Positions 1,001-64,000 of a stretch of 64,000 nt of DNA are shown in pieces. How positions within the stretch are numbered: the stretch's first letter is position 1; every line of letters starts with the position of its first letter. The notes beneath the pieces are model-generated. The model saw nothing but the letters and a program-made list of their open reading frames with translations, searched no databases and was not told where the DNA came from. The translations under genes were made by a program, and so were the position numbers. The stretch comes from an uncultured Gemmatimonadota bacterium (GTDB taxonomy: Bacteria; SM23-81; DAOVCL01): NCBI GenBank assembly GCA_964626665.1, contig CAZVGK010000001.1, positions 141,914-205,913 on the forward strand, in the 5' to 3' direction.

Positions 1001-1035
1001 GAAACTGCAGGATTTTCCCTCTTTCAAAAGAAAGA

Positions 1036-1090: not shown

Positions 1091-1145
1091 CTCAGTCTAA
1101 ATTTCCATTTTCCATCACTCAGGGCTCTGCCCTAACGGCACAGGA

Positions 1146-1205: not shown

Positions 1206-1247
1206 CCTCAACAATGAAACCCAAATTTAGAAAGGAGGTGAAAAGAG

Positions 1248-1910: not shown

Positions 1911-1926
1911 GGAAGGAGGTGATGAG

Positions 1927-2313: not shown

Positions 2314-2392
2314 AACTGGGCTGGACCCCCATAGGGGAAGCCCAGGGTTGCCGAACGACGGAGGCAACCCAGGAAAAAGGGGGTAATTTAAG

Positions 2393-6251: not shown

Positions 6252-6448
6252 TCCATCTTAGCAGACTGAATGGAAAACCTTTGGTGATCAATGCGGAGTT
6301 GATAGAGCTCATCGAGAGAACGCCAGATACCATTCTCACCCTGACTACAGGGAGAAAGATAATGGTCAAGGAAGATGTTGCCGAGGTAGTGGAAAAGGTG
6401 AAAGAATATCTGAGGGAAGTTAGAATATGGACATTACCACCTTCATAG
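6248..6448 (+). CDS. flbD: Flagellar protein FlbD
   Basis: 66 aa; MIHLSRLNGKPLVINAELIELIERTPDTILTLTTGRKIMVKEDVAEVVEKV matches the FlbD pattern; directly upstream of motA. Confidence 0.8.
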   Translation: MIHLSRLNGKPLVINAELIELIERTPDTILTLTTGRKIMVKEDVAEVVEKVKEYLREVRIWTLPPS

Positions 6449-8550: not shown

Positions 8551-8564
8551 GTAACACTTACCAC

Positions 8565-8710
8565 GGAATGGACCTTCATCAATGATCAATTAACAATTAG
8601 CAATGGTCAATTAGCAAGTCTTAAAGAGGGAAAATCCTGAAGTGTCAATTTCCATTGATCATTGATTATTTCTGTGCCAGTCCGTGGCTATCGGTGGTGA
8701 ACAATTATTC
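8565..8710. repeat. Composite MITE-like intergenic repeat in the fliL-fliM spacer
   Basis: ccacggaa ... caattaacaattagcaatggtcaattagcaagtcttaaagagggaaaatcctgaagtgtcaatttccattgatcattg ... tttctgtgccagtccgtggctatcggtggtg. Confidence 0.7.
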
Positions 8711-8725
8711 CAATAGGAAGGAACA

Positions 8726-9730
8726 ATGCCGGGTATCTTATCCCAGGAGGAGATAGACCAATTAGTTTCATCGGTGTCTGAGGGCAAAGGTCAGGGGAGA
8801 AGGCCCCCTGGCGCTGAAAAGGAGGCGATCCCCTATGACTTCCGCCAGCAGAACATAATTCCTAAGGGGTCTTTGCACGCCTTCCAGATAGTCCACAGCG
8901 ATTTTGCCAAATCCTTGAGTGGCTTTCTCCTGAGGAGCGTAAAGACCGAACTAATCGTGAACTTGGCCACTGTCAACACCATTCCCTTAGGGGAGTTTAT
9001 AAAATCGCGGGAGAATCCCACTTATCTAAATTTAGTAAGGCTGAAACCCTTTGAGGGCAACCTGATTATAGATTCCTCTCCTAACTTGGTCTTCCTTCTT
9101 GTTGACCTCCTCTTCGGGGGGACGGGCAGTCCTCCTTCTACAAACGGGTTAATTACCCATATGGAAAGGAAGTTCATGCGGAAACTGATGGAAGGTATGC
9201 TCGAGGAGTTCAAAACCACCTGGGAGAAGATAACCCTCTTTCATCCTAAGATCGAAGAGGAGGAAACCGACCCCTCAATTGTGGGCTCACCATCTAACCT
9301 GGAGAACGCAATGATGGTCATCTACGAATTGAGCCTGGAAAAGGGATCAGAAACCCACCACCTCCTGAGTTTTTGTTATAGCGCTAAACTCCTCAAATCC
9401 CTGGTGGCCGTTCTGGGCCAGAAGAGAGGGGGAGAGGAGAGGGAAGTCCCTCCGCAAGAGCGGGATCAATCGGGGAAATTGAGGAAGAGCTTGGGTCAAG
9501 TGGAGGTCCCGGTGGAGGCAAAGTTGGGTGAGGCCCACCTGACCATTAGGGATATGATTGACCTGCAGGCAGGGGACATCATCAGGCTGAGCAACTATGT
9601 GGGTGGAGATCTAACGGTTGAGGTGAAGGGAAAGCCAAAGTTTCTTGCCCGTCCTGGGGCTTACCGGGGCAAGGCGGCCGTAGTGGTTACCTCAACCCTG
9701 AAGGAAGGAGTGGTGAAAGATGGCGAGTAA
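8726..9730 (+). CDS. fliM: Flagellar motor switch protein FliM
   Basis: N-terminal CheY-P binding motif (ILSQEEIDQLV), middle FliM domain, C-terminal FliN-like domain. Confidence 0.9.
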   Translation: MPGILSQEEIDQLVSSVSEGKGQGRRPPGAEKEAIPYDFRQQNIIPKGSLHAFQIVHSDFAKSLSGFLLRSVKTELIVNLATVNTIPLGEFIKSRENPTYLNLVRLKPFEGNLIIDSSPNLVFLLVDLLFGGTGSPPSTNGLITHMERKFMRKLMEGMLEEFKTTWEKITLFHPKIEEEETDPSIVGSPSNLENAMMVIYELSLEKGSETHHLLSFCYSAKLLKSLVAVLGQKRGGEEREVPPQERDQSGKLRKSLGQVEVPVEAKLGEAHLTIRDMIDLQAGDIIRLSNYVGGDLTVEVKGKPKFLARPGAYRGKAAVVVTSTLKEGVVKDGE

Positions 9731-10361
9731 AAAAGAGAAAGTGAGCCCACCTCCCCCGGAGGAGAAGCAGAGTAAAGAGGAGAAGGGAATTCCAGAGGTG
9801 GACGAAAATTTAGAGGAAAAGGATAAAAGCCAGAGGGAAGAGAAAACCCCTGAGGTAGCTGAAAATTTAGCGGGAGATCAGGAGGAAACTTCTGCTGGTG
9901 GAGGGGAGCAGGGTGGGGAACCTCTGGGAGAAGAACCAGGAGATGAGAGCAAAGCCTCCGGAGAGCAACCGGATCCTGATGCCAACTTAGAATGGCCAGA
10001 GGAGGATACCTCCTCTGGTGAAGAGTCAGCCCCCCAGGAGGAGGTGGCAGTTCAGGATGTCCAATTTGACCAGATTAAGCCCCAACAATCAAGTGGCCAA
10101 CCCAACAATATAGACATCCTCCTGGATGTTGACCTTCCCATCTCCGTGCAATTAGGAAAGACAACAATGACCATCCAGGAGCTCTTGGAAGTTGGCCCCG
10201 GTTCAGTGATCGAGCTGGACAAAATGGTGGGGAACCCAGTGGAGATCCTGGCTAACAACAAGACCATAGCCCAGGGAGAGGTAGTAGTTGTTGACGAAAA
10301 CTTTGGGGTGAAAATAACCTCCCTGATCAGCGCGGAAGAGAGGATAAAAAGCCTGAGATGA
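9720..10361 (+). CDS. fliN: Flagellar motor switch protein FliN/FliY with acidic N-terminal extension
   Basis: C-terminal SpoA/FliN domain (LDVDLPISVQLGKTTMTIQELLEVGPGSVIELDKMVGNPVEILANNKTIAQGEVVVVDENFGVKI). Confidence 0.85.
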   Translation: MASKKEKVSPPPPEEKQSKEEKGIPEVDENLEEKDKSQREEKTPEVAENLAGDQEETSAGGGEQGGEPLGEEPGDESKASGEQPDPDANLEWPEEDTSSGEESAPQEEVAVQDVQFDQIKPQQSSGQPNNIDILLDVDLPISVQLGKTTMTIQELLEVGPGSVIELDKMVGNPVEILANNKTIAQGEVVVVDENFGVKITSLISAEERIKSLR

Positions 10362-12817: not shown

Positions 12818-12825
12818 GTAGAGGC

Positions 12826-12920
12826 TTATACAATTATCAATTAGCAAGTTAAAATGAAATGAAGACCGAAGTGTCACTTTCCATTGATAATTGATAATTG
12901 ATCATGACCATTTCTTAGCG
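12826..12920. repeat. MITE-like intergenic repeat in the fliR-flhB spacer
   Basis: caattatcaattagcaagttaaaatgaa...gtgtcactttccattgataattgataattg...accatttcttagcggtgg; terminal inverted repeats caattatcaatt / aattgataattg. Confidence 0.7.
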
Positions 12921-12945
12921 GTGGACTTGAGCGCAAAGGAGAAAT

Positions 12946-29966: not shown

Positions 29967-29999
29967 GAAAAAAATGACGGTTCACCACTGATTACTGAT

Positions 30000-30150
30000 C
30001 CCTGTTTTTCTGTGCATAGTCCGTGGTTATCTGTGGTAAATTATTACTCAATTAACGATTAGCAAGTTAAAATGAAGCCAGAAAATCCTGAGATGCGGGC
30101 CATTTTCCATTGATAATTGTTCATTGACCATTTCTTGGTCTGTCCGTGGT
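30000..30150. repeat. Composite AT-rich intergenic repeat (MITE-like) in the rpsE-rpmD spacer
   Basis: Contains ctgtttttctgtgcatagtccgtggttatctgtggt, then caattaacgattagcaagttaaaatgaa...gaaaatcctga...ttccattgataattg...accatttcttgg...tccgtggtg; related copies at 8565-8710 and 12826-12920. Confidence 0.7.
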
Positions 30151-30155
30151 GAGAA

Positions 30156-32246: not shown

Positions 32247-32395
32247 TAACAGTTTACCACGGAATCTCACGGAAAAAAGCAATTAAGAATTGAAAATTAA
32301 AAATGAAACTTATGCTGGCCCCTCCTGATCTCTGAAGACTGATCTCTGTTTTTCTGTGCTAGTCCGTGGTCATCCGTGGTGAAATATTCTCTCCT
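32247..32395. repeat. Intergenic repeat block in the rplE-rpsZ spacer
   Basis: 32247-32312 is the near-exact reverse complement of 1146-1205; 32345-32390 matches the ctgtttttctgtgc-tagtccgtggt block at 30000-30043. Confidence 0.7.
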
Positions 32396-32397
32396 TT

Positions 32398-36750: not shown

Positions 36751-36839
36751 AACTTCTTTCTCAATTTAAGCGTTTCGCTAAAGCCTTAAACACGAATTCC
36801 ACAAATATACAAATAGCACGAACTACAATTCTTGTAAAT

Positions 36840-36900
36840 TCCCAGGGGATCTGTTTTTAGGGATCCTCACTCTTAATTCACATTTCTGTTTTTCTCTGAG
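36840..36900. repeat. Short AT-rich repeat in the rplB upstream spacer, shared with 43105-43150
   Basis: aggatcctcactcttaattcacatttctgtttttctctgagggatcc here versus aggatcctcattcttaattcaaaattcttaattgcc at 43110-43146. Confidence 0.5.
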
Positions 36901-37025
36901 GGATCCCACTAATCAGCAGTCAGCTCCCCCCAATTTCCAATTTTCGCCCTTACGAGTATCGACTCTTCTATTCATGTAGATTCGTTTATTCGTGTCATTT
37001 GTGTTCTAAAGCTTCTACTTTGGCC

Positions 37026-40000
37026 TTATTTGAGTAACACCATTTTTCTGGTAAGCGAGAAATCTCCTGCTTGAAAACGGCAAAAATAGATACCACTTGT
37101 CACCTCTTTTCCACTCCGATCCTTGCCATCCCAGTAAGTTTTGTAATACCCACTTGACTTATCCTCATCCACCAGAGTTTTCACTAATTGCCCTTTTATA
37201 TTATAGATCTTGAGGGTCACATAGGTGTTTCCCGCGAGTCCGTAATTGATCTCCGTGATTAGGTTAAAAGGATTAGGGTAGTTCTGGGAGAGGGTAAACA
37301 CAGATGGCACTGGAGATTCGTTGCACGAGGGTACGGACTTTTTATCCTCTCGAACATAATGGCCGGTGGTGACCAGGACGAAATCCCTCTCATAATCACT
37401 CAACTGCTTGGGGGCAGAAAAGGCCAGCCTCACCTCTTGCCCAGGAATCAACTCGGCATAGACTCCATCTGGCTGCAAAAGGGACTTCAGGACAGAACCA
37501 TTTGCTGAGTGAAGGGCCTTAGCCAGTGGACAACTCCGAATCTTTAAGGACACATCTTCAGCCCCAACCAGCCCAATAAAATCTAAATCATAAGGTATCT
37601 GCCAAAGGAGACGCACCTCTACCTCTCTCCCCTCAGATACTCTCCATGGCAACTCTACCAACTCCGTATACTTGTTCTCCCTATAACTGATTCCCAATAC
37701 TGTCTGAGATTTGGGGAAATCATCTCCAATAATCAACATAGGTTCCGCTTTGGGACGCCTTTTGCTCTGGTCTTTAGCAACCGTTCCACCTATGACCAAG
37801 GCCACTTTCCTAATCCCTTTAACCTGGCCGAAATTAACCGTGAGCTCATCCCCTCCTCTCCCCCTGAAAACCAGACCATCCGCCGCTGAAACATATTTTG
37901 AGAATTCTCCACCCAAAGAATCAACAGCAGATATTGGGCCAGTCAGCTTCTTGTAACCCAATATCTTTCCCGATGTGCTAACTGCAACCTTAACTTCAGA
38001 TGGATGCTCCACCGCCATAAGCTGTAGCTGATCGATCCAGGAGTGTTCATTTTCAAATTCGCGAAGCTCAAGATAGTAGTTTCCGTCTTCAGGGACAAGG
38101 GGTTGTTGAAGCTGGTAGTAATCGCTTATGTCCTTACCCTCATTCTCCAGCAGTTCAGCAAGAGGTAGAAGGTTATTGTCCTCTACACTCTTCTCTCCAT
38201 CCCAGGTAAACACATAGGGACAACCATTGTAGGGCGAATGATGATGATAAAAAGCTCCCATATCTGCCCTTGTCCCATCAGGATCCTTTGGACTAAGGGG
38301 ATAACCTGTATCTATGCAAGGTGAACCCGCTTGTAGGTGATAATCACCATTGGCAGAATTTAAGAACATTGGATCAGCAGATATATCTTCTCTACCTACT
38401 GCACAACCCTGGTAGTTAACGCCATTACCCCATAGGTCATTGTAAGATATGTTTGGGAAAAGATCAACATCACTATAAATACCATAATCGCTATTACTGG
38501 TGATTATGGTATTTGTAATAGTCAGATAGCAGTTATCAATGCATCGAATACCCGTGTTATTACCAGGGATCGTGTTGTTGATAATATTTGGACAGCATTG
38601 TAGTGTGCATTGAACAGCAATATTATTATTAGTGAGCAAATTCCTCTCAATATCGGGGGAGGCAGAAAACATACAACCTATCCCAAAATGTGACATATCG
38701 GTAATGGTATTACTACGGATTTTGCAGAGATGAGATGATGACCCCCAGCAGAGGATACCATAGGTATCATCACCGTTGCCAAGGATTGAGTTGTTACTAA
38801 TAGTTAGATAGTTAGAAGTAGGTGAGCAGGCTAATCCCTCGTTTTCAACAGTAATCTTATTGTGGGAAATCTCCCCCCACCCATTAGCGACAACAGCATA
38901 TTGACAGTGACTTATCTCGCTGTTGCTTATGGTGGCAAATGAATTGAACCAGACCCCTTGATAGGCGTCTTTTATGGCGCAAAAATTTAAAGTTAAATTA
39001 CCACCATCGCCAATATGGGTGGATATCCCTCCCCAATCTGAGATAGAAGGGGCCGAAGTATTTGATGAACAAAAGGTAATTTCGTAGTCATCTACCCCGA
39101 TAGCCCTTAATGCCCCATCCACCAAAAGCTCACATTTATCTGGATAAAGCCCTATATTTTGGACATCACTATTTGCCGAGAAGTAAACAGTAACCCCAGG
39201 GTCTATAGTGAGGAGGGCTCCATCATCCACAGTTACATCGCCATATACATAGATGTCCCCTGACCAGGTGGTGTTTTCAGTAATATGTCCATGAACTCCA
39301 CATGCAAGTTCGGTTTCATAAGGTATGTTGTTGTGTTTAGTAACTGTAACCTTCAACTCATCATAGGTGGAAAAAGAGGTGTTGAAGGTCGCCTCTCCGT
39401 TAGCATCGGTATATTGGATTTCGTGATAGTCCTCACTCTCTTTCCATAGACATACCAAGGCATCCGGAACACCAGCATTGATAGTAATACTGCTGGGGCC
39501 GATCTGATAGAAGCAGGGATGGGAGACGGCAAGAGGTTGAGGCACCCCTGTCCAGATCCGCAGGGCCGGATCCCCAAGGACATGGAAATCCTCGAACTCA
39601 ACCCTGGTTACCTCGGGGGTAGGTGCCCATTTTGAAGGATATCCTGCCCCACCTGTGAGGACATATTTGTCGAACATCCAGAACTTGCCGTAGTTCAGGA
39701 TCGCACCCAACCGGTCTGTCGGGCTACCGATCTGTGTGCCGCAGTACCCGGGGTCGAAGTCGTCCCAGATGGCGTCGTAGAACCCCTTGCAAAGCTCATC
39801 GTTATACCCGCTGTAGCTGATCCTGGTCGAGCCGATGAAGCCCACAACCCCCTTCCCCTGGGCCTTCAACAGTGCCTCTCCCAGGCAATCCGTGATCAGA
39901 TAATCGGGGGAGTCCAGATCGGTCTCCCCATCGAACCATCCGGTCCGGCAATTAATGCTGAACATCACCGGGAGCTTATCACCGTTACCCAGGCTGGGAA

Positions 40001-41471
40001 TATCCTCGGTGACGAACCACGGCTTATTCCAACCATTGTAGCCACCAGATGGGGCATTATAGGAGTCTCCGTGATCCCGATGATTGACTAAGAAACATCC
40101 CTGGTTGATCGCATCGATCACGTCCTGGGTGGTGCCATCGAAGGTCAGATGCCCCGGGATGGGATCTCCATTGTGGTAGTACTGAGGGGTTGACCCTATT
40201 GAGCAGGTGTAAACCCTCTGACGGTCATACCCCTCGCCCTCTAAGAAATCCTGGACCACCTCAGAGGTGTAAATGAAAAACCTGTCCTCCCGGCCATCAG
40301 GTTTGAAGTCCTCGAAATGGCCCGCCAACAGAACCCGGTTGAACCACTCCGAGCTTGTTGTATACGGATCCCGCTCATACCCCAGGATCTTGTCCACGAC
40401 TATCCCGATATCCGACTCATCCACCGGCAACCTCCCCACCAGGATATCGGGGAAATCGACCAACTGAGTGTCAGGTGGGTCGTTCTCTGTATCGACTGTG
40501 GCGTAGTAGAGATCAGTCCCGACCTTTTCGTCTCCAAATGGATGAGGATACTTGTAATGGACTGGTAGAAGATCTGCATCGCCGACCAGAAGGAGAAAAG
40601 ATGGGGCCGGATCCCAGGTGTCATAGGCAACCTGGACATAATCGGCGATCTGGTCAGCCGTGGGATCACCCCCTAACTCCGAGAGCTTGACGACTCTGGT
40701 CTTGAGTCCTGTCCGCTGCCTCCATTCAGCTAAAGGCAGGATCTCATCGTAAAGGTCGTCATGCACCATGATCAGGTAGTCCGCCCCGTCGCCACCCTTC
40801 CCCTTCCCCCCACCCACTGGTTCGTAGTTGAGGGCCAGCCTGTTGAGCATAGACCGAAAATGGGGGGAATCCTTGGGGCTGGCCACGGATCCGGCACCAC
40901 TCACGCTCACCCTGAGCTCGGGATAGACCCTCAACTGCCCGGTAACAGGATTGTGCTGCACCGGGTAGAGGATGACCAGGACAAGCCTATGACCCCGAAG
41001 TACCCTGGGAAAGCTGAGGGCGACTATGTTCTTCGGGTAAAAGCCGTCCTCGGAATATAGGGAGTCATCCCTGACGAACTCGGTCGTGTCGTCCCACTCG
41101 ATCCGTGGCTCCTGGGCCGGATAGACCAGATACCCATCCAGGATCTGACTGGTCGAGTCGATGATGGTGACCGTGGGCTCGACCCCGGGCTCGATCTCCA
41201 TCAGTATGGCCACGGTGGGGAGCTCTGGCCGGCCGATCTCGGCGATATGCCCGCCGCCGGAAAACCTCAGCAGTTGATAGGTATCCCCCTCGGCCTCCAT
41301 GTCGTGGCTGATCAGACCATATGTCTCCAGCTCGATGATTTCCGAGCCAGAAAGGGTAATCTGCGGCCTGGTCGGAGTGGTCGCATCCCCAAAGGAGACC
41401 CACATTCCGTAACCAGCGCTGGGGACAAATCCCAGCAAGGCCACCACTATAAGAAAACGAATCGCCTTCAT
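37026..41471 (-). CDS. Secreted multidomain gingipain-like cysteine peptidase (family C25 fold) with parallel beta-helix repeats and a Por/T9SS-type C-terminal sorting domain
   Basis: Signal peptide; His region VNHRDHGDS and Cys region LPVMFSINCRTGWFDG with ...LGDPALRIWTGVP, resembling the gingipain catalytic domain; Asn/Gly/Ile-rich beta-helix repeats; C-terminus LSQNYPNPFN...IYNIKGQLVKTLVD...GIYFCRFQAGDFSLTRKMVLLK. Confidence 0.75.
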   Translation of the reverse strand: MKAIRFLIVVALLGFVPSAGYGMWVSFGDATTPTRPQITLSGSEIIELETYGLISHDMEAEGDTYQLLRFSGGGHIAEIGRPELPTVAILMEIEPGVEPTVTIIDSTSQILDGYLVYPAQEPRIEWDDTTEFVRDDSLYSEDGFYPKNIVALSFPRVLRGHRLVLVILYPVQHNPVTGQLRVYPELRVSVSGAGSVASPKDSPHFRSMLNRLALNYEPVGGGKGKGGDGADYLIMVHDDLYDEILPLAEWRQRTGLKTRVVKLSELGGDPTADQIADYVQVAYDTWDPAPSFLLLVGDADLLPVHYKYPHPFGDEKVGTDLYYATVDTENDPPDTQLVDFPDILVGRLPVDESDIGIVVDKILGYERDPYTTSSEWFNRVLLAGHFEDFKPDGREDRFFIYTSEVVQDFLEGEGYDRQRVYTCSIGSTPQYYHNGDPIPGHLTFDGTTQDVIDAINQGCFLVNHRDHGDSYNAPSGGYNGWNKPWFVTEDIPSLGNGDKLPVMFSINCRTGWFDGETDLDSPDYLITDCLGEALLKAQGKGVVGFIGSTRISYSGYNDELCKGFYDAIWDDFDPGYCGTQIGSPTDRLGAILNYGKFWMFDKYVLTGGAGYPSKWAPTPEVTRVEFEDFHVLGDPALRIWTGVPQPLAVSHPCFYQIGPSSITINAGVPDALVCLWKESEDYHEIQYTDANGEATFNTSFSTYDELKVTVTKHNNIPYETELACGVHGHITENTTWSGDIYVYGDVTVDDGALLTIDPGVTVYFSANSDVQNIGLYPDKCELLVDGALRAIGVDDYEITFCSSNTSAPSISDWGGISTHIGDGGNLTLNFCAIKDAYQGVWFNSFATISNSEISHCQYAVVANGWGEISHNKITVENEGLACSPTSNYLTISNNSILGNGDDTYGILCWGSSSHLCKIRSNTITDMSHFGIGCMFSASPDIERNLLTNNNIAVQCTLQCCPNIINNTIPGNNTGIRCIDNCYLTITNTIITSNSDYGIYSDVDLFPNISYNDLWGNGVNYQGCAVGREDISADPMFLNSANGDYHLQAGSPCIDTGYPLSPKDPDGTRADMGAFYHHHSPYNGCPYVFTWDGEKSVEDNNLLPLAELLENEGKDISDYYQLQQPLVPEDGNYYLELREFENEHSWIDQLQLMAVEHPSEVKVAVSTSGKILGYKKLTGPISAVDSLGGEFSKYVSAADGLVFRGRGGDELTVNFGQVKGIRKVALVIGGTVAKDQSKRRPKAEPMLIIGDDFPKSQTVLGISYRENKYTELVELPWRVSEGREVEVRLLWQIPYDLDFIGLVGAEDVSLKIRSCPLAKALHSANGSVLKSLLQPDGVYAELIPGQEVRLAFSAPKQLSDYERDFVLVTTGHYVREDKKSVPSCNESPVPSVFTLSQNYPNPFNLITEINYGLAGNTYVTLKIYNIKGQLVKTLVDEDKSSGYYKTYWDGKDRSGKEVTSGIYFCRFQAGDFSLTRKMVLLK

Positions 41472-41488
41472 CCTAACCTCCTTGACTT

Positions 41489-42703
41489 TTATCTCACCAA
41501 CATCAACTTCCTCACATTGGTGAGGGCTCTCCCTCTTCTGTTCTCAGCCCGCAACAGGCAAAGATATATCCCACTTGGTACTTCCTTCCCTCCCCCATCC
41601 CTCCCATCCCAGATCACCCGATGCTCTCCAGGTGGCTGTGGGCCATCCACCAGTGTCCGCACCACCTGTCCCAAGATGTTGTAGACCCTCAAGGTGGTTG
41701 GAACTGACCACTGACCACTGACCACTGGGGAAGGGAGGTGGTAGGGGATGACGGTACCCGAATTGAACGGGTTCGGATAGTTCTGGCCCAGGGCGAAAAA
41801 CCCTGGAACGATGGCCTTATCCTCAGATGGAACCCAATTGTGTGGCCTTGACCTGGGGTTTCTGACCCCATCGACCTCCCCAAATTGAGGACCTGTCGGC
41901 TCCGTGGAGGTGGTGGTGCAATCACCGTCGCCGATCGTGTCCACAGGAAAGCCAAGGGTGGTGTCGATATTCCCCTCACACTGCAGGTAGTTGCCGTCCA
42001 GGAAGCCCCCTCCCATGATGGTGTGGGATCCAAAGTTCCAACCGATGGTGAATATAATGTCGTTCTCCAACAACAAAGGATTGCTCGGTTCCAACCCAAA
42101 GAGCGCTCCTCCTCCTCCCGACCTCAAAAAGCAATATTCGATCACTGGAAAGGAAGAACTGTCACAGGCGACCAAAAACCCCCCCGTCTCAACCTGACTG
42201 CTCGTCCACATCAGCTTGCAGTGGGAGATGGTGGGAGAGGCGTTAGATATCTGGATCATTATACCCTCGGCACTGCTGGTGTGCTCCACCACACAGTACC
42301 TAAGAATGCACTCCGAATCCACACAGGTATCGTTAAATTTTATCCCCCCCCAGGCAGTCCAAGGCCACTCTTCACCATCGTCGGTGAAGCTAATCATCAC
42401 ATCTGGCTTCCCGCAGGCCTCTAAGGCCCCGTTGATGGTCAACCCAATAGCCTCCTCGAACTTCAACACCATCCCCGGATCTATGACCAGCTTGTCGTTG
42501 GCCGAGATGGTTAGGTTCCCACTTATCAGATAATACCCCTCATCCCGCCAGGTGACATCATCGGTAAGCTCGTCCACCATCTGCATGGTGTAAACCGTCC
42601 CATCCCCAGGGGAAACCCAATCGGCCCAGGCCAAAAGGGGGAAACACCAGATGATGCTGATAAAGACGATTAAACTCCTCCATTCTCTCATCCTCACCTC
42701 CAA
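41489..42703 (-). CDS. Secreted protein with Por/T9SS-type C-terminal sorting domain; central domain not assigned
   Basis: Signal peptide; C-terminus ALGQNYPNPFN...LRVYNILGQVVRTLVDGPQPPGEHRVIWDGRDGGGKEVPSGIYLC. Confidence 0.65.
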   Translation of the reverse strand: MEVRMREWRSLIVFISIIWCFPLLAWADWVSPGDGTVYTMQMVDELTDDVTWRDEGYYLISGNLTISANDKLVIDPGMVLKFEEAIGLTINGALEACGKPDVMISFTDDGEEWPWTAWGGIKFNDTCVDSECILRYCVVEHTSSAEGIMIQISNASPTISHCKLMWTSSQVETGGFLVACDSSSFPVIEYCFLRSGGGGALFGLEPSNPLLLENDIIFTIGWNFGSHTIMGGGFLDGNYLQCEGNIDTTLGFPVDTIGDGDCTTTSTEPTGPQFGEVDGVRNPRSRPHNWVPSEDKAIVPGFFALGQNYPNPFNSGTVIPYHLPSPVVSGQWSVPTTLRVYNILGQVVRTLVDGPQPPGEHRVIWDGRDGGGKEVPSGIYLCLLRAENRRGRALTNVRKLMLVR

Positions 42704-42790
42704 TTCCTTACCTCACCAATATCAACTTCCTCACGTTGGTGAGAGCTCTTCCTCTTCTGTAATATAGGGACACTTCCCAATAATTGTTAA
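42704..42790. repeat. Duplicate of the 404-aa gene 3' end plus junction (ghost of a CTD gene 3' end)
   Basis: 42691-42790 aligns with 41461-41560 (…ctcaccaaYatcaacttcctcacRttggtgagRgctctYcctcttctg…); on the - strand it would encode ...RALTNVRKLILVR-stop. Confidence 0.6.
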
Positions 42791-42935
42791 GTCCTCAAGC
42801 ACTATCGTCCCCTCTGTCTCCCTCGCTTATCTTTTCACCTTTGTACCAAATCTCTATAAGCCTTTGTCTTTCGTATTTTCGATCTCTGAATTCTTTTTGC
42901 CCACTCCTGTAGATTCTTTTATCCGCGTCACCTGT

Positions 42936-42959
42936 CCCGCACTTATGCATAAGTGCGGG
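42936..42959. repeat. Perfect 24-nt palindrome in the rplW-CTD gene spacer
   Basis: cccgcacttatgca|tgcataagtgcggg. Confidence 0.5.
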
Positions 42960-43104
42960 GTGAATATTCCAAAGCTCTACAGGTCAAGGGTTCTTAGGGC
43001 TTAAGCTCCTTCGCCGGACTTGGATAGAAGGGGCCTCAAAAGGCCCTTAACCTTGCACTAAAGTGCGGCAGAATGGACATTCCTCTAAGTTCCCAAAGGT
43101 CAGA

Positions 43105-43150
43105 GATCGGTCTTTAAGGATCCTCATTCTTAATTCAAAATTCTTAATTG
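43105..43150. repeat. Short AT-rich repeat downstream of rplW, shared with 36840-36900
   Basis: aggatcctcattcttaattcaaaattcttaattgcc; the ttcttaattg module also occurs at 1160-1180 and, inverted, at 32275-32295. Confidence 0.5.
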
Positions 43151-43153
43151 CCT

Positions 43154-43444
43154 TTACCCCCCCTCAAAGATGCTGATGATGTCTCCTTCCTTTAGTTTGA
43201 CAATAGCCTTCTTCCAATTTGACCGCCTGCCCTCGTATCTTCCCATTCTCTTCGGTTTCCCCTTCATGAGCATAGTCTTTACATCCAGGACATTCACCCG
43301 AAAGAGCTTCTCCACTGCCCACTTCACCTCTATCTTGTTAGCCCTTCTATCGACCACAAAGGCATATTGATTGCTCGCTTCCTTGAGATTGTTGCTCTTC
43401 TCCGTGATATAAGGCCTTTTGATGATTGTGCGGGGGTCTCTCAT
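43154..43444 (-). CDS. rplW: 50S ribosomal protein L23
   Basis: IIKRPYITEKSNNLKEASNQYAFVVDRRANKIEVKWAVEKLFRVNV. Confidence 0.9.
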   Translation of the reverse strand: MRDPRTIIKRPYITEKSNNLKEASNQYAFVVDRRANKIEVKWAVEKLFRVNVLDVKTMLMKGKPKRMGRYEGRRSNWKKAIVKLKEGDIISIFEGG

Positions 43445-44067
43445 GATAAAGCCTCCTTAAGGGTCGAAATGGCCTCTGGGGTGATAAGGAGGAAATCTGA
43501 ATTTAATATCTCATAGGCATTGGTATTCATAGCCGTTCGTAACTTTAAGCCCGCGAGGTTAGAGGTTGCCCGGAGAAGGTTGTGGTCAGCAGAGACCACC
43601 AGCAAAAGGCCCTTCTTCCCCTTTAACCCTAATCTTTCCAAGAAGGAGGCGAAGGCCTTTGTCTTTGGCGACTCCAGTTTTACCTCATCTAATCCCCAGA
43701 CTGCACCCCTTTGGGCCAGGGAGGAAAGGGCGGATTTGAGGGCTAACCGCCTCATTTTTTTGGGAATTTCCTTGTGCCTGGGGTGAGGAGAAGGACCAAA
43801 GGTTTTGCCCCCACCCACCCAGAGGGGAGAGTTGGAGCTTCCTGCCCTTGCCCTTCCGGTGCCCTTCTGTCTCCAGGGCTTGGCCCCTCCCCCCTTCATT
43901 TGGGAGCGGCCTTTAGCCATTGCTGTCCCCTGGCCCTGGTTATAGGAGTAGGCCTTAAGGTAGGCATAAAGGGCCCCTTGGTTAGGGGCGATCTCAAAGA
44001 CCTCTTTGGGGAGCTTCAAACTACCTATCTCTTCCCCGTTAAGGGAGTAGTGGGGGATCTCTTTCAT
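43441..44067 (-). CDS. rplD: 50S ribosomal protein L4
   Basis: GGGAKPWRQKGTGRARAGSSNSPLWVGGGKTFGP. Confidence 0.95.
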   Translation of the reverse strand: MKEIPHYSLNGEEIGSLKLPKEVFEIAPNQGALYAYLKAYSYNQGQGTAMAKGRSQMKGGGAKPWRQKGTGRARAGSSNSPLWVGGGKTFGPSPHPRHKEIPKKMRRLALKSALSSLAQRGAVWGLDEVKLESPKTKAFASFLERLGLKGKKGLLLVVSADHNLLRATSNLAGLKLRTAMNTNAYEILNSDFLLITPEAISTLKEALS

Positions 44068-44687
44068 CCTTGAACCTTTCTGACAATGAGGTAGCTCTGG
44101 GGTGGCCCGGGAAGAGATCCCTTGATGGCCAATAGATTCTTTTCAGGGATGAGCTTAACTAAGACTGAATTGCGCACAGTTACCCTTCTCCCTCCAGTCT
44201 TCCCCGCCATCTTTGTCCCCTTATAGACCCGGGAGGGACTGGAGGAGGCACCGATGGAACCTGGCGCCCGATGCCTGTCTGACTGCCCATGAGTCTTTGG
44301 CCCTCCCCGAAAGCCATATTTTTTCACTACGCCCATAAACCCCTTCCCCTTGGATATTCCCACCACATCCACGGTCTCCCCTGGGGAAAAGATATCCGCT
44401 TTTATCTCGGTTCCCACTTTCATCTCCTCCCCCCAGTCCTTAAATTCCCGCAATATCCGATAGCTGGTTACCCCGGCCCCTTTGAAATGGCCCAAGAGGG
44501 GTTTGGTTACCTTCTTCTCCTTGATGGGCTCAAAGCCCAATTGCAGGGCGCTGTAGTCGTCCCTCTCCGGGGTCTTTACCTGCACGACTTGGCAGGGGCC
44601 AGCCTCGACCAAGGTCACTGGTAGGGATTTTCCGTCCTCTCCGAAGATGGTGGTCATCCCCAATTTTTTGCCGATTATTCCCCTCAT
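44064..44687 (-). CDS. rplC: 50S ribosomal protein L3
   Basis: MRGIIGKKLGMTTIFGEDG...; FRGGPKTHGQSDRHRAPGSIG. Confidence 0.95.
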   Translation of the reverse strand: MRGIIGKKLGMTTIFGEDGKSLPVTLVEAGPCQVVQVKTPERDDYSALQLGFEPIKEKKVTKPLLGHFKGAGVTSYRILREFKDWGEEMKVGTEIKADIFSPGETVDVVGISKGKGFMGVVKKYGFRGGPKTHGQSDRHRAPGSIGASSSPSRVYKGTKMAGKTGGRRVTVRNSVLVKLIPEKNLLAIKGSLPGPPQSYLIVRKVQG

Positions 44688-44690
44688 CGC

Positions 44691-44999
44691 TCAGACTCTT
44701 ATCTCCACATCCACTCCGGCAGGAAGGTCTAACCTCATCAAGGAGTCTACCGTCTGAGGAGTGGTATCTTCAATGTCTATAAGCCTTTTGTGGATTCTGG
44801 TCTCAAATTGCTCCCGGGATTTTTTGTCCACATGGGGGGAGCGTAAAACAGTATAGATGGACCGCTTGGTGGGTAGAGGTATGGGACCTAAGACCTTGGC
44901 CCCTGCCCTCTTAGCTGCCCTGACGATCTCACCGGTTGAGCGGTCAAGCATCACATGATCATAGGCTTTTAGCCTAATTCTTATCTTCTGGCCTGGCAC
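44691..44999 (-). CDS. rpsJ: 30S ribosomal protein S10 (GTG start)
   Basis: [43 protein letters not shown]; GGAGG RBS. Confidence 0.95.
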
Positions 45000-45041: not shown

Positions 45042-46934
45042 CTATTTGAGAAGCGCCATCTTTTTAGCAACTTTAACATCCCCAGCTTGGATTTTATAAA
45101 AATAAACCCCACTTGCCACCTCTTGCCCATTGTCGTCTCTTCCTCCCCAACAGATATTATACCGGCCGGCTCTTTGTCTCTCATCTACTAAGGTTTTAAC
45201 CTTCTGTCCTAAGAGATTGTAAACAACCAAACTCACCTGGGCATCCATCGGAAGTTCATAGCCTATCTCGGTCTCCGGGTTGAAAGGATTGGGGAAATTC
45301 TGGGCCACAAAAAACTCCTTTGGCAATTTTTCGTCTTCATTGGGTTCTACAAACACTTCGACTGAGTAAGACGCCTCCATAACCCCCCAGATGTTATAGA
45401 CCTCGATGGTTATTGTGCTGTCCCAAACTTCATCCATAGGATCTTCGTAACTAAAGGTGAAGCCTGTCACTTGGTCATTAGGCGGATAACCTCCAAAGTC
45501 AGTTGGATGAATGGTTATCCCATTATGTGTGGGGTTGTCGTCCCCACAGTTGTGTTGGTCATCATAGTCCACATACTTATCATAACTCCATCCTCCTGTG
45601 CCCGAGCCGTATACCCGCACCCTATTCAGATCAAGTTCGTTCCCAGGCACTGTCACCCAAAAAGAGGCTCTCGGCGAATGGGAGCTAACACCCCATATGG
45701 TCATATTTTCAGTATCTGTATGGGGCAAAACATTCATCGGGTTCCTTAAGTAAGAAAAGGCGGTTCCACCCAGGTAATCCTCAGCATGTAAGTGATCAAG
45801 CCCAATATGCCTAATCCCTCCAATTCTGGTCAGTCCAGCAAAAACACTATCTCCAAAATTTACACTGGGATTTACATGCACATATTCCATACGCTGATTT
45901 GGAATCACAGCATCTCTAATCCTAACCGACTGGCTGCCTATGTGATCAACAACACCGGTAAAAACAGCGTAAACATCATCCTCTGTCGCAGGATTATCAT
46001 CATCATCAATGTCAAGTCCGCCATGCCAATCAAAGGTAGTGTCATTCCCAGAGATTAGGATTCTCGGCCCAAAGGGACTGGTTAAACTATGAAGGGGTGT
46101 GGTGTTTCGAGACAAAGGCCAGTAATAATTCTCCGTTCTAATTCTCAGAATAACATCGTCAACAAATGCGCCTTTATGTGTCTGAGTGCCATCGCTTTCG
46201 AAAGCAAACGCTATCCAAACTTGAGGGTGACCACAAACATTACCTATGTCAGGGACATTGGTCAGATCGAAGTTTTCAAAGCGCCAGACATCCCCTCCAT
46301 CGCCATAGGCCGCATAACCTGAGAAATTTGTGCCATCGATTGATGCAAGTCGAGAGAACATATCAGCTTCGTACATCGTACGACACCAATAATAAAAGTG
46401 CAGCTCCGCATCGGTGACGTTGCCAACACTAAGGTCGCAAGGACCCCAAATCATAAAGGTGAGAACATTATTGGCATAATCATCAAACTCTGGATCAAGG
46501 CCATTTACCCCATCCCGGCAACACCATGCACTATATTTTCCTGAATGAGGATTATAGTCATCTTTACCCCATAAATGACCGGTGGGATTGCCTGTGTGCC
46601 CAACATCTCGGCGGCTCCAAGCATATCTGGGAAAAGACGATTCGAAATCTTCGGTCATAATGTTAACCCAATGTGGCAGAAGGAGGGCATCATTCCCATC
46701 TTTGATGTTTCCATTCTGGCTGTTTCCCATATGTATAATGCGTACACTTTCTGAAAGTTCTGAATTTTTGCCACAAGAAACCAATGCTTTATCTCCATCC
46801 AGCAATTGATAGTGAATCTTCTGCGAGCTGACAAATTCCCCGATTTCAACTTTAGCTAAAGCAACGGTAGCACCTATTAGAGGAAACCCTATTATAAAAG
46901 AAGCACATATTCCTAATTTCCAATGAACCTGCAT
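45042..46934 (-). CDS. Secreted protein with a possible M23-like metallopeptidase region and a Por/T9SS-type C-terminal sorting domain
   Basis: Signal peptide; HGGLDI and LDHLHAE resemble the M23 HxxxD and HxH motifs (tentative); C-terminus FFVAQNFPNPFN...VYNLLGQKVKTLVD...GVYFYKIQAGDVKVAKKMALLK; AT-rich third codon positions. Confidence 0.6.
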   Translation of the reverse strand: MQVHWKLGICASFIIGFPLIGATVALAKVEIGEFVSSQKIHYQLLDGDKALVSCGKNSELSESVRIIHMGNSQNGNIKDGNDALLLPHWVNIMTEDFESSFPRYAWSRRDVGHTGNPTGHLWGKDDYNPHSGKYSAWCCRDGVNGLDPEFDDYANNVLTFMIWGPCDLSVGNVTDAELHFYYWCRTMYEADMFSRLASIDGTNFSGYAAYGDGGDVWRFENFDLTNVPDIGNVCGHPQVWIAFAFESDGTQTHKGAFVDDVILRIRTENYYWPLSRNTTPLHSLTSPFGPRILISGNDTTFDWHGGLDIDDDDNPATEDDVYAVFTGVVDHIGSQSVRIRDAVIPNQRMEYVHVNPSVNFGDSVFAGLTRIGGIRHIGLDHLHAEDYLGGTAFSYLRNPMNVLPHTDTENMTIWGVSSHSPRASFWVTVPGNELDLNRVRVYGSGTGGWSYDKYVDYDDQHNCGDDNPTHNGITIHPTDFGGYPPNDQVTGFTFSYEDPMDEVWDSTITIEVYNIWGVMEASYSVEVFVEPNEDEKLPKEFFVAQNFPNPFNPETEIGYELPMDAQVSLVVYNLLGQKVKTLVDERQRAGRYNICWGGRDDNGQEVASGVYFYKIQAGDVKVAKKMALLK

Positions 46935-46952
46935 AACTCCCCCTACTCTAAG

Positions 46953-48353
46953 TCAAAGACTAGCCTTAACTTTTTGAACCACTTTTCTTCCCCTATCCAA
47001 AATGATGAAAGACCTCATCCCATTTTCGTAACTCATCATAGGGAGGATGCGAACTGTGTCATAAGACTTCTTGCATATTTCACCTGTTTCTAAACTAAAG
47101 ATAACGGCAACCTCCTCAAATTTTAAGCTAACTCTCTCCCTTCTGCGCATCGTAGTAACAAAGCTCTTGTTAATGGTAGATGCGCAACATTGATGCCAAT
47201 AACTATTCCAGTCTTTCCCTAAAACTTTTCTCCATCTTCTTTTTCCAGTAAGAAGATCAAAGATATCTATCGTAGATGGAGGCCCACTTTCGGCAAGGAG
47301 ACTCTTAGAGTCGTCAATAAAACAGAACCAGTTTAATCCTCCTACTTTTTCTATCCGCCTTTCGGGCCCCATTGCTGCCTCTATCGTCACAAAGTCTTTG
47401 CTGTTCCACAATATATCCCCTTCATTGCTTAATACTACCAGTCTCCTCTCCCCGCCGCTTCTCTCTTCACCCGGAAGATTGGAATAGTCCACCGCAATGG
47501 CCATAAACTTCCCACTTTCACTCACCTCAAGTTGCGGTATTTCTGTTGGATTAAAAAACAATCTAAAGTGAAGGGGATCTCCTAATCTTTCACCAATATC
47601 AATTTCCCACTTCGTTTTTAAATTCTTTACATTAAAAAGAAGCAACTTGACATAAGGCCTTTCCAGGTTGTATCCCTTGAAATAGACGACTTCGCTGTCA
47701 TTTAAAAATGTGGCCACCCAATTAAATTCCGTGCGTATAATTTTAGAACCTCTCTCAATGGATTCCTTCCCTTTGTCCCACCATAACTCCTCACCAGTTC
47801 TATTATCAAAAACCCTGAAATATCCACCCCACCTTTCGACACCGCTTTTGTGAGTTGTTATGGCATAGTCACCTTTGGGCGATAAGGTGAGTCCTGGTGC
47901 AAAAAGAGGAGTCTCCCACTTGAGATTGCCATCCTTGTCGTAACTCTTCGTAATCACCCACTCACATCCGGCACGAGAATTTATGATTACTTCTCCCCCT
48001 TCCGCTGAGATCGACACATTATCCACTCCACCATAATATTCGCCACGTTCATCTGGCTTCAGGTCAAATCTCTTCTCCCACAAAATATTTCCATTAGGCC
48101 CCAAATAGTAAACAACACTGCAAAGGCCTTCCCTCTTATCAAAAATATCTGTCAGAACAACTATGTTCTCATTGCCAACCTGGATGTCTCGTATCTTGCC
48201 TCCAAATTCCCTTTCCCAAATCAGCTTTGAGTTGGGGAATAAGCCCTTTGCCGGCGATTCCGCTATGGCACTGCCTACCCACATCATCAACAACGCCAAT
48301 ACAGAGAGAGCCAGAACCCTCAGGATTCCTTTTCTCAACACTTGCTTCCCCAT
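46953..48353 (-). CDS. Hypothetical secreted or membrane-anchored protein (466 aa), possibly beta-propeller-like
   Basis: N-terminal signal/anchor (LRVLALSVLALLMMWVGSAIA); Trp/Gly-rich repeats; AT-rich codon usage like the neighbouring 630-aa gene; 18 bp upstream of it. Confidence 0.55.
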   Translation of the reverse strand: MGKQVLRKGILRVLALSVLALLMMWVGSAIAESPAKGLFPNSKLIWEREFGGKIRDIQVGNENIVVLTDIFDKREGLCSVVYYLGPNGNILWEKRFDLKPDERGEYYGGVDNVSISAEGGEVIINSRAGCEWVITKSYDKDGNLKWETPLFAPGLTLSPKGDYAITTHKSGVERWGGYFRVFDNRTGEELWWDKGKESIERGSKIIRTEFNWVATFLNDSEVVYFKGYNLERPYVKLLLFNVKNLKTKWEIDIGERLGDPLHFRLFFNPTEIPQLEVSESGKFMAIAVDYSNLPGEERSGGERRLVVLSNEGDILWNSKDFVTIEAAMGPERRIEKVGGLNWFCFIDDSKSLLAESGPPSTIDIFDLLTGKRRWRKVLGKDWNSYWHQCCASTINKSFVTTMRRRERVSLKFEEVAVIFSLETGEICKKSYDTVRILPMMSYENGMRSFIILDRGRKVVQKVKASL

Positions 48354-48449
48354 TTTAAAGCCTCCAAATTAGAGATATACCCTCCCATAGTAACCACCAA
48401 AATTTCTCCTAAACCTCACCCCTTTCCTTTGAGGAAAACAGAAATACTC

Positions 48450-49655
48450 CTATTTTATAACCTCTGCTACGACCCCTGCTCCCACGGTTCTTCCCCCCTC
48501 CCTGATGGCAAACCGTAGCTCCTTCTCCATCGCTATCGGCGTGATTAGCTCCCCCTCTATGGTCACATTATCCCCGGGCATGACCATCTCTACCCCCTCC
48601 GGTAGCTTTACCACCCCAGTCACATCCGTGGTGCGAAAATAAAACTGCGGCCTATACCCACCGAAGAAAGGTGTATGCCTACCCCCTTCCTCCTTCGTCA
48701 ATACATAGACCTCACCCTTAAACTTGGTATGCGGGGTGATCGACCCCGGGGCTGCTATTACCATCCCCCTCTCTAACTCATCCCTGTTTACCCCCCGCAA
48801 CAGCAAACCCACATTGTCCCCAGCCTCTGCCCGATCCAGGATCTTCCGAAACATCTCTACCCCAGTCACTACCGTCTTCTTCGTTTCCCTGATCCCTACC
48901 CTCTCCACCGCATTCCCTACCTTCACCGTCCCCCTCTCTACCCTCCCTGTCCCTACTGTCCCTCGCCCAGTAATGGAAAATACATCCTCCACAGACAGCA
49001 AGAAGGGCTTATCCAAATCCCTCTTCGGCTGAGGTATATACTTGTCCACCGCATCCATTAGCTCATAGATGCTCTTGAAGGCCTCACTCTCCTTCACCTC
49101 AGGGTTGGCTGCTGCCTCCATCGCCCGCAGGGCACTTCCCCTGATCACCGGCACCTCATCCCCCGGGAAGCTATACTCCGTGAGCAACTCCCTGACCTCT
49201 AACTCTACCAAATCCAATAGCTCAGGATCATCTACCTGATCTACCTTGTTCATATAGACTACTATATAGGGCACCCCTACCTGCCTGGCCAAAAGGATGT
49301 GCTCCCTGGTCTGGGGCATCGGCCCATCAGCAGCGGATACCACCAGGATGGCCCCATCCATCTGCGCCGCCCCGGTGATCATATTCTTCACATAATCGGC
49401 ATGCCCCGGACAGTCTATGTGCGCATAATGCCTGGCGGCGGTCTCATACTCCACATGGGCTATCGCTATGGTTAACCCCCGCTCCTTCTCCTCAGGAGCA
49501 TTGTCTATAGAATCAAATGTCCGGGCCTCCGCCAGGCCCTTCCTATGCAAGATCATGGTAATCGCCGCGGTCAAAGTGGTCTTCCCATGATCCACATGCC
49601 CAATAGTCCCTATGTTTATGTGCGGCTTCGTGCGCTCAAACTTCTTCTTCGCCAT
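48450..49655 (-). CDS. tuf: Elongation factor Tu
   Basis: [15 protein letters not shown]...DCPGHADY... Confidence 0.97.
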
Positions 49656-63525: not shown

Positions 63526-63602
63526 TGGCAGGCCTGGAGGGATTCGAACCCCCAACTTCCGGTTTTGGAGACCGGCGCTCTAGCCGTTAGAGCTACAGGC
63601 CT
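63526..63602 (-). tRNA. tRNA-Trp (anticodon CCA), CCA end encoded
   Basis: Hand-folded cloverleaf: acceptor AGGCCTG/CAGGCCT, D-stem GCTC/GAGC, anticodon stem CCGGT/ACCGG with loop CTCCAAA, T-arm GGGGG-TTCGAAT-CCCTC. Confidence 0.9.
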
Positions 63603-63608: not shown

Positions 63609-63758
63609 TTACCTTGTCTCCCGGTGAATGGTATGTTTCTTACAGAACTTGCAATATTTTTTAAAGCTTAGCCTATCCGGATGTTTCCTCTTGTTCTTCG
63701 TAGTGGTATAATTTCTCCGCTTACACTCCGTGCAGGCCAAGGTAACTATTTCTCTCAT
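63609..63758 (-). CDS. rpmG: 50S ribosomal protein L33 (49 aa, below the ORF-track size cutoff)
   Basis: Hand translation: [49 protein letters not shown] with C-x2-C...C-x2-C zinc ribbon; start ATG overlaps the tuf copy 2 stop (ATGA). Confidence 0.85.
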
Positions 63759-64000
63759 TTTATGACCTCAGCTACGACCCCTGCTCCCACGGTTCTTCCC
63801 CCCTCCCTGATGGCAAACCGCAACTCTTTTTCCATGGCGATGGGCGTGATCAGCTCCCCCTCTATGGTCACATTATCCCCAGGCATGACCATCTCTACCC
63901 CCTCCGGTAGCTTTACCACCCCAGTCACATCCGTGGTGCGAAAATAAAACTGCGGCCTATACCCACCGAAGAAAGGTGTATGCCTACCCCCTTCCTCCTT
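63755..64000 (-). CDS. tuf: Elongation factor Tu, second copy (3' portion only; continues beyond the window)
   Basis: 63766-64000 is nearly identical to the 3' end of tuf at 48451-48690, with a few synonymous differences and a different stop codon. Confidence 0.9.

Follow-up and report, generated by a model that had tools for sequence, protein, structure and literature searches.

A gene pair for a C25-family peptidase and a secreted-type partner protein lies between rplW and rplB of the S10 ribosomal operon in an uncultured Gemmatimonadota bacterium

In almost all bacteria, the ribosomal protein genes rplW (L23) and rplB (L2) are neighbours. The S10-spc-alpha cluster is the textbook example of gene order kept by selection for stoichiometric co-expression. 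Here we describe a stretch of 64,000 nucleotides (nt) from an uncultured Gemmatimonadota bacterium (contig CAZVGK010000001.1 of assembly GCA_964626665.1, positions 141,914 to 205,913), hereafter the window, in which rplW and rplB are separated by two genes, one for a cysteine peptidase of the gingipain family (C25) and one for a partner protein. The general conservation of the S10-spc-alpha cluster is documented (PMC2837039), and for cargo of type IX secretion systems (T9SS) in ribosomal operons nothing relevant was found in the literature. Compared with the canonical S10 operon, the window has a broken rplW-rplB adjacency, and several other spacers of the cluster are enlarged to 137-189 nt and carry hairpin repeats.

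The distance from the rplW stop to the rplB start is 6403 nt (36751-43153, minus strand), and the ORF listing together with Pfam and NCBIfam matches reveals two co-oriented open reading frames (ORFs) in this interval. The upstream half of the operon ends with L23 (43154-43444, minus strand; PF00276, E=1e-34; NF004363 above cut-off), and the downstream half opens with L2 (35929-36750, minus strand; TIGR01171, 420 bits). The partner gene (41489-42691, minus strand) encodes 400 residues. Its product has a signal peptide, a beta-solenoid-like domain on the N-terminal side and a putative C-terminal sorting domain (CTD) of the T9SS type. The C25 gene (37026-41471, minus strand) begins 17 nt past it and encodes 1481 residues, comprising a prodomain, catalytic, Ig-like and beta-helix domains, about 340 residues with no assignment and a type A CTD. 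A first-pass annotation, made from the sequence letters, had described a 6.4-kb split between rplW and rplB with same-strand ORFs of 1481 and 404 residues and repeat-rich spacers. The ORF list and the profile hidden Markov model (HMM) hits agree with its coordinates and strand, repeats were found in both spacers, and the length of 1481 residues stands. The partner ORF, listed as 41489-42703 with 404 residues from a TTG, likely has its true start at the ATG at 42691, which follows a GGAGGT motif and agrees with the public gene call, giving 400 residues.

As a baseline for gene order we used approximately 160 diverse loci, among the matches listed in a GTDB genome scan with L2 (at most 71% identity) and a metagenome scan with L23 (at most 59%). 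The gap between L23 and L2 in 156 other loci goes from -1 to 326 nt, with a median of about 30 nt, and none of the 156 exceeds 326 nt. When every junction between S10 and L5 is taken into account, a gap above 400 nt was measured just twice (434 and 951 nt) in roughly 1400 measurements. The tuf-S10 junction is above 400 nt in 11 of 76 diverse loci. An insertion inside the S10 operon is rare, on the order of 1% of lineages or fewer, and the measured gaps (maximum 326 nt in 156 loci) bear out the earlier description of the rplW-rplB junction as exceptional.

The insertion is real and fixed in one species. An identical L23 is present on 23 contigs assembled by JGI, Logan and NCBI, and in 23 of 23 it is followed by the genes for the partner and C25. 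The identical C25 protein was found on 21 contigs, from 20 kb to 1 Mb in length, with the same neighbours, and one short contig bearing the junction was recovered in 17 samples. Among the 23 contigs with identical L23, there is no insert-free allele of the window species. The junctions, whose possible chimeric nature had been raised in the first-pass annotation, are not chimeric, with the 23 contigs of the three sources in agreement.

The L2 homologs form eight clusters at 86-90% identity, followed by a straight drop to 74% or less, so the window lineage sits in a small, isolated clade. Among named taxa, KSB1, Zixibacteria and Ignavibacteria come closest, with 58-60% identity over nine ribosomal proteins. 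Four relatives (L164, L165, L166 and L168) have rplW, a spacer and rplB, with no insert. In L167 the same spacer is found before rplB on a contig that holds only the 3' end of rplW, and the short contig of L170 starts inside that spacer. The arrangement does not appear to be ancestral or widespread in the lineage, a possibility considered earlier, as five near relatives (86-90% L2 identity) have rplB directly after rplW. The rplW-rplB spacers of the relatives measure 117-203 nt, against a median of about 30 nt elsewhere, and the clade appears to have had an unusually long, repeat-carrying and partly conserved spacer before the insertion. Within the clade, the window lineage is the most divergent (80-84% nucleotide identity, compared with 84-85% among the others). 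The direction of change proposed here rests on the outgroups and on the internal anatomy of the insert.

Upstream of the partner gene, we found a 53-nt stub (42708-42760, minus strand) that corresponds to the 3' end of a P0269-like CTD-protein gene. It encodes ...RRGRALTNVRKLILVR*, in agreement with tblastn using P0269, and is 91% identical to the 3' end of the 400-residue partner gene. In another genome (L171; NCBI GCA_030670005.1), P0269, a CTD protein of 296 residues, is followed after 22 nt by a gene with 84% identity to the partner. The DNA homology between L171 and the window starts exactly at 42760, inside the stub, and has 83.9% identity over 521 nt. As this homology begins inside the stub, the cassette would derive from a locus with the order P0269-like gene, partner, C25. 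The stub is then best read as a remnant of the former upstream neighbour of the module, with the cut falling within that gene. In L171 (4101-6739), a tandem pair of GWxTD-domain proteins and a cluster of the DUF2089/SHOCT-like type lie upstream of this home-type locus of the module.

When the single spacer of the relatives is aligned with the two spacers of the window, the ancestral spacer corresponds to the beginning of the spacer on the rplW side joined to the end of the one on the rplB side. The 5' part of this ancestral spacer is present in two copies. Copy 1 (AGAATTTTGAATTAAGAATGAGGATCC...GGGAACTTAGAGGAAT; 43079-43145, minus strand) aligns to the single spacer of L164 and L166, and copy 2 (36828-36888, minus strand) was identified by alignment to copy 1. 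The duplicated segment of about 66 nt (AGAAtTtTGAATTAAGA…GGGAAyTTA.A.GAAT) flanks the insert on both sides with about 83% identity, and its 24-nt core occurs twice in the 64-kb window, with 0 occurrences expected by chance. The stub and copy 1 are separated by a 318-nt filler (42761-43078, minus strand), which contains a GC hairpin, a perfect 24-nt palindrome (42936-42959), a repeat similar to the E arm described below (42905-42935) and then AAAAAGAATTCAGAGATCGAAA (42877-42898). A segment of the filler (42877-42926) is 80% identical to part of the insert-free spacer of L168. One public gene call (L177) reports a 51-residue ORF within the filler (42795-42950, minus strand), overlapping the palindrome and the E-like repeat, which is probably spurious.

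On the rplB side, the E arm (ACACGAATAAACGAATCTACATGAAT; 36965-37005, minus strand) is located just 3' of the C25 stop. It is a direct repeat of 42905-42935 and is also present in the L168-type spacer. In the minimum free energy structure, it is the 5' arm of a long hairpin and pairs with 36790-36825 in the rplB leader. The whole rplB-proximal spacer folds at -80 kcal/mol (z=-5.4), and folding beyond that of shuffled sequence was found only here and not in the L168, L166 or rplE-rpsN spacers. The conserved rplB leader (36751-36827, minus strand) contains the 3' arm ATTCGTG...ATTCGTG, a small AGCGAAACGCT hairpin and the ribosome-binding site (RBS), and is present in all clade members. Within it, 46 nt (36751-36796) are 100% identical to L164 (6511-6556), with flanking genes at 79-80% and third codon positions at about 55%. 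This suggests that the leader is under constraint and specific to the clade. We rejected a long recombination tract as the source of the identical 46 nt, as the identity peak between the window and L164 does not reach beyond the leader and ~60 nt at the start of rplB. A functional rplB leader would be older than the insertion and was apparently left intact by it. An Rfam scan of 35.5-49 kb (E<=1) gave only a spurious snoRNA match, with no known ribosomal protein leader in the spacers, including the rplB leader.

The partner and C25 genes are also adjacent in distant loci. They are found together in L082 (62% and 54% identity), with RadC, SymE and TrmB as neighbours, in L083 (39% and 50%), in L179 (32% and 36%, with a 13-nt spacer) and, in reversed order, in L173. 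None of these four contexts is ribosomal. The two genes are adjacent wherever both neighbours are readable, and judged from these sequences they form a conserved module. The combination of a beta-solenoid CTD protein with a prodomain-bearing C25 peptidase was previously unremarked, and its recurrence across distant uncultured lineages suggests a joint function of both proteins.

The spacers of the window carry a further type of sequence. Intergenic elements of a family-like design were found on the minus strand (32261-32397, 29967-30155 and 36751-37025) and on the plus strand (944-1247, 8551-8725 and 12818-12945), and comparable elements are present in the relatives (L164 8017-8131; L166 2789-2901 and 3553-3672; L167 2418-2547). 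They have inverted arms of tandem heptamers (CACGGAx/TCCGTGG, CACGAAT/ATTCGTG, ACAGGAT/ATCCTGT) around an AT-rich core, often with CA.AGAAAAACAGA. The elements sit just upstream of gene starts, with several of them at junctions within the S10 and spc operons, and their positions differ between relatives, which have analogous ACAGGAT/ATCCTGT hairpins at other junctions. The spc-operon spacers rplE->rpsN and rpsE->rpmD have in common with several regions upstream of plus-strand genes the CACGGAx…/…TCCGTGG arms, the CA.AGAAAAACAGA motif and the AT-rich core. The rplB-proximal spacer is of the same design. We take these elements to be comparable with repetitive extragenic palindromic (REP/BIME), Correia/NEMIS and miniature inverted-repeat transposable element (MITE)-like repeats, given their inverted arms, AT-rich core, intergenic location and variable position. 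Unlike those, they have arms made up of tandem heptamers (CACGGAx, ACAGGAT, CACGAAT), and they could be either REP/MITE-like elements or sites at which RNA is processed.

Overall, we consider it probable that a pre-existing module was inserted in the rplW-rplB spacer in the ancestor of a single species-level lineage, and that its source was a non-ribosomal locus of the P0269 type. Coming from a locus with a P0269-like CTD gene followed by the partner and C25 genes, the module would have carried the 53-nt stub of the upstream gene along. The event would have left the direct duplication of ~66 nt of the 5' part of the spacer on either side. The route may have been recombination at short dispersed intergenic repeat or hairpin elements, rather than transposition or the action of an integrase. 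For example, a Campbell-type integration of a circular intermediate via a homeologous copy could give the flanking duplication. The insertion may have been tolerated since the conserved rplB leader and the RBS stayed intact, with downstream genes presumably expressed by read-through of the cassette or by restart or processing functions supplied by the spacer. Export of both proteins would begin with Sec and continue along a T9SS-like route. The peptidase would be a zymogen activated by removal of its prodomain, and the partner may work with it at the cell surface.

Several points weigh against this explanation. The polarity is provisional: with the window lineage the most divergent of the clade, a history of one ancestral gain and one loss would cost just a single additional step. 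The identity of the flanking copies is no more than about 83%, which indicates either an old event or recombining sequences that were never identical, and the mechanism is therefore a candidate one. For the 318-nt filler, no homologous sequence was found in L171 or L082. The insert-free spacer of the L168 type holds E-like and AAAAAGAATTCAG segments that are also found beside the cassette, and these could be the scar of a former insertion. The L171 data fit an intragenomic move and a horizontal acquisition alike. Moreover, the 64-kb window contains none of the T9SS machinery genes (PorK/L/M/N, Sov, PorV, PorU, PorZ), and the promoter and terminator scans relied on an E. coli-type (sigma-70) consensus that may not be that of the host.

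Other origins of the arrangement have to be weighed against these same data. A chimeric assembly or binning, joining a ribosomal contig to an unrelated protease contig, would be in line with the metagenomic source and with the composition shifts inside the insert, but both junctions are reproduced in 21-23 independent contigs from various samples and assemblers and hold interpretable homologous sequence in the form of duplicated spacer halves, which makes such an artefact extremely improbable. We regard as very unlikely a self-mobile element, that is a transposon, an integrative island or a MITE-bounded composite that targets the site. The direct repeats on both sides of the insert speak for it, as do the dispersed hairpin-type repeats of several ribosomal spacers, whose positions vary in relatives and which could act like MITE ends. 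However, no transposase, integrase or recombinase ORF or domain was found in the insert, where the only sizeable ORFs are the two cargo genes. The tRNA scan gave no tRNA near it (the sole one of the window is at 63.5 kb), and no inverted repeat joins its ends. Target-site duplications are typically far shorter than 66 nt, and a flanking repeat of this length and 83% identity is unlike one, while the flanks of the cassette differ in every other context. Of the two readings offered in the first-pass annotation, growth-coupled expression and a tolerated mobile insertion, the tolerated insertion is the better supported in view of the insert-free relatives, and mobility in the sense of a self-mobile element found no support. 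Unlikely, too, is a clade ancestor that already had the cassette, with the relatives deleting it via the flanking direct repeats and keeping long spacers as scars. All spacers of the clade are abnormally long (117-203 nt, median elsewhere about 30 nt), the L168-type spacer has the E arm and AAAAAGAATTCAG..., which are cassette-adjacent in the window, the divergence of the flanking repeats (83%) implies some age, and the window lineage may be basal in the clade. Yet this history needs at least one extra step, or more if the window lineage is not basal, and in L164 and L166 the spacer aligns simply, in one copy, and holds nothing derived from the cassette. The stub and the presence of the module at non-ribosomal loci (L171 at 84%, L082, L083, L173 and L179) mark the ribosomal site as derived.

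A further proposal concerns function and is compatible with the insertion history, differing only by claiming a selected role: the cassette would be read through from the S10 promoter, so that the protease tracks ribosome synthesis and growth rate, and would be fixed for this reason. We see this as a tentative possibility. The cassette is co-oriented with the operon, the two genes are only 17 nt apart, the insertion is fixed in 23 of 23 contigs, and the clade also has a CTD-protein gene directly before rpsJ. With the E. coli-type consensus, neither spacer shows a terminator-like hairpin with a T-run on the strand of the operon, and no sigma-70-like promoter was found in the 275 nt that precede rplB. 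Transcription of rplB and of the more than 20 essential genes downstream must come from somewhere. On the other hand, a promoter-like TTAACA-18-TATATT (42761-42790, minus strand) is located just upstream of the stub, ahead of the cassette, which could have its own promoter, although this is a consensus match only. Several strong hairpins after rplW, including the perfect 24-nt palindrome, could attenuate or process transcripts, and the long conserved rplB leader, which predates the insertion, may hold a promoter unseen by the E. coli consensus. The relatives manage without the arrangement, and fixation in one species can be neutral. Co-transcription of the cassette with the S10 operon by read-through is plausible from the sequence; besides read-through, there may be an internal promoter that escaped recognition, or the RNA may be processed at the hairpins. 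A stronger version seems doubtful to us. In it, the cassette would belong integrally to the S10 transcription unit, transcription of rplB and roughly 25 essential downstream genes would pass through it, the exoprotease would be tied to ribosome synthesis, and the heptamer hairpins would both process or stabilise RNA and act as landing pads where foreign cassettes recombine.

Returning to the insertion of a pre-existing module, its reconstruction is unusually complete, with the empty site in sister lineages, a donor-type locus in another genome, a gene stub and a flanking duplication. The locus is a natural experiment on how far a conserved operon can be interrupted, and on what keeps the ribosomal genes downstream expressed, be it read-through, internal restart or processing. 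In scope, it concerns one uncultured species and a rare gene-order variant in an otherwise highly conserved operon, and the inserted proteins are new members of known families.

The 1481-residue protein can be assigned to peptidase family C25, on the basis of HMMs above cut-off and a conserved His/Cys dyad. Propeptide_C25 (PF08126) covers residues 59-193 with 69.2 bits (cut-off 22), and Peptidase_C25 (PF01364) covers residues 232-639 with 213.7 bits (cut-off 23, E=6e-63, profile positions 1-374 of 374). The C25 Ig-like domain (PF03785) follows at residues 644-718 with 27.6 bits (cut-off 25). Beta_helix/NosD matches extend over residues 827-1050 and precede the stretch of about 340 residues without domain assignment. 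The CTD at residues 1398-1478 of 1481 passes both TIGR04183 (34.0 bits, cut-off 23) and Por_Secre_tail (PF18962; 29.7 bits, cut-off 27). In a phmmer alignment with 4IEF_B, and with numbers counted from this alignment, His467 (NHRDHGD) aligns with His211 of the RgpB GHG motif and Cys508 (SINCRTG) with Cys244 of VAC. The suggestion of a gingipain-like peptidase made earlier agrees with the PF01364 match, the dyad and the prodomain.

Matches of the C25 protein to PDB sequences are limited to gingipain catalytic domains and prodomains (1CVR, 4IEF, 5MUN; RgpB, Kgp). Like RgpB and Kgp of Porphyromonas gingivalis, it has a signal peptide, the PF08126 prodomain, a C25 domain with the dyad, PF03785 and a type A CTD. 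The similarity is remote (phmmer E about 1e-10), and in place of haemagglutinin or adhesin domains, for which the window protein has no Pfam match, it carries a right-handed beta-helix and about 340 further residues. Its gene, unlike those of the gingipains, is a neighbour of a dedicated beta-solenoid CTD partner inside the S10 operon, and the host is uncultured and not a member of Bacteroidota. The protein is not a gingipain proper, in the sense of an Rgp or Kgp ortholog, given an E of only about 1e-10 and no Pfam hits for adhesin domains. With PorU, the T9SS sortase (NF033707, 6ZA2), it shares the C25-type fold family and a CTD, with a weak NCBIfam match. In contrast to PorU, it has a gingipain-type prodomain, and its PDB matches are gingipains. 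We rejected orthology with PorU, as NF033707 gives 86.9 bits against a cut-off of 420.

In composition and in phylogeny the C25 gene is a mosaic, with the prodomain, catalytic and Ig part on one side and the part with the beta-helix, the unassigned region and the CTD on the other. The GC content at third codon positions (GC3) is 0.66-0.75 up to codon 600 and 0.35-0.51 afterwards. DNA homology to L082 stops at 39636, and protein identity to P0002 falls from about 68% (54-68% over the 5' part) to about 25% or none beyond residue ~760. This mosaic suggests a swapped C-terminal half. GC3 does not point clearly to a foreign origin, being host-like in the partner gene and in the first 600 codons of the C25 gene, and low in the C25 3' half, as it is in two older genes for proteins of 466 and 630 residues, located before rpsJ.

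Both inserted proteins open with a typical signal peptide, read off the sequence as MKAIRFLIVVALLGFVPSAGYG and MREWRSLIVFISIIWCFPLLAWA, with that of the partner ending in …LLAWA|DW. For the partner, FlgD_ig passes its cut-off (39.5 bits against 27) and TIGR04183 is under it (19.7 bits against 23). The earlier claim that both proteins carry a signal peptide and a T9SS-type CTD therefore stands for the two signal peptides and for the CTD of C25; for the partner, it is FlgD_ig that passes and not TIGR04183. The AlphaFold (AF2) model of the partner has a pLDDT (predicted local distance difference test score) of 66, and about 80 in two domains, the N-terminal one beta-rich and the C-terminal one a beta-sandwich. 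In this predicted model, the C-terminal sandwich matches FlgD-Ig and the CTDs of PorZ (5M11) and PorU (6ZA2). At the DNA level, the CTD of the partner is 77% identical to that of the C25 gene, and its homology to both other CTDs of the window is plain from the sequence. A relative of the partner, P0271, has the Pfam domain Beta_helix. The partner and C25 are predicted to be cargo of Sec and of a T9SS-type system.

An independent break between rplW and rplB was observed in L037 (JADHVP010000007.1, Ignavibacteria bacterium BS750m-G4; 4884-10001). As in the window, the operon is split, with rplB lacking rplW before it and with same-strand genes for T9SS-CTD proteins upstream. In this case, genes for M16 peptidases, MoxR and three CTD proteins come before rplB, followed by a hairpin and a 286-nt AT-rich region. 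The same-strand upstream genes include a CarboxypepD_reg protein and three BNR/Ycf48-like Por_Secre_tail proteins. No rplW or rplD is present in the 10 kb upstream of rplB, so the upstream operon half is absent over that distance, whereas the window keeps both halves around the insert. We considered L037 as a second case of T9SS cargo inserted before rplB and rejected it in favour of an operon translocation with a hairpin and AT-rich upstream region. A further broken junction is seen on a short contig (L154; Ga0335395_10038028, 370-3000), where three ORFs without Pfam hits come after rplD-rplW on the opposite strand and rplB is absent within 2.6 kb.

The rest of the S10 operon is complete, with all genes in canonical order and strand, and the 6403-nt gap between rplW and rplB is where contiguity with short spacers breaks. 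The upstream half consists of S10 (rpsJ, 44691-44999), L3 (rplC, 44064-44687) and L4 (rplD, 43441-44067), all on the minus strand and assigned by Pfam and NCBIfam, followed by L23. According to the gene list of the source contig, rplB is followed without interruption by S19 (rpsS), L22 (rplV), S3 (rpsC), L16 (rplP), L29, S17, L14, L24, L5 ... SecY, Adk and InfA. Upstream of the rpsJ block, the ORF layout and the source-contig gene calls place fusA and then tuf (48450-49655) on the minus strand.

The interval between tuf and rpsJ (45042-48353, minus strand) contains a non-ribosomal pair, namely a 466-residue secreted PQQ/beta-propeller-like protein and a 630-residue T9SS-CTD protein, the latter passing TIGR04183 with 33.2 bits. 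Counterparts of 415 and 625 residues sit before rpsJ in L164 and L165 (1365-4537 in each), with identities of 34% and 63%, and in both relatives the upstream neighbour of the pair is not tuf. This pair is older than the rplW-rplB insert and separate from it, and is unremarkable at a junction that is often variable. Its two genes have a low GC3 (0.41-0.44) although they are old residents.

Finally, a 249-nt direct repeat with 95% identity (48447-48695 and 63752-64000) corresponds to the 3' end of tuf, copied at the window edge beside tRNA-Trp (63526-63602). This is consistent with a second tuf copy upstream of the following large gene block, presumably secE-nusG-rplKAJL-rpoBC.

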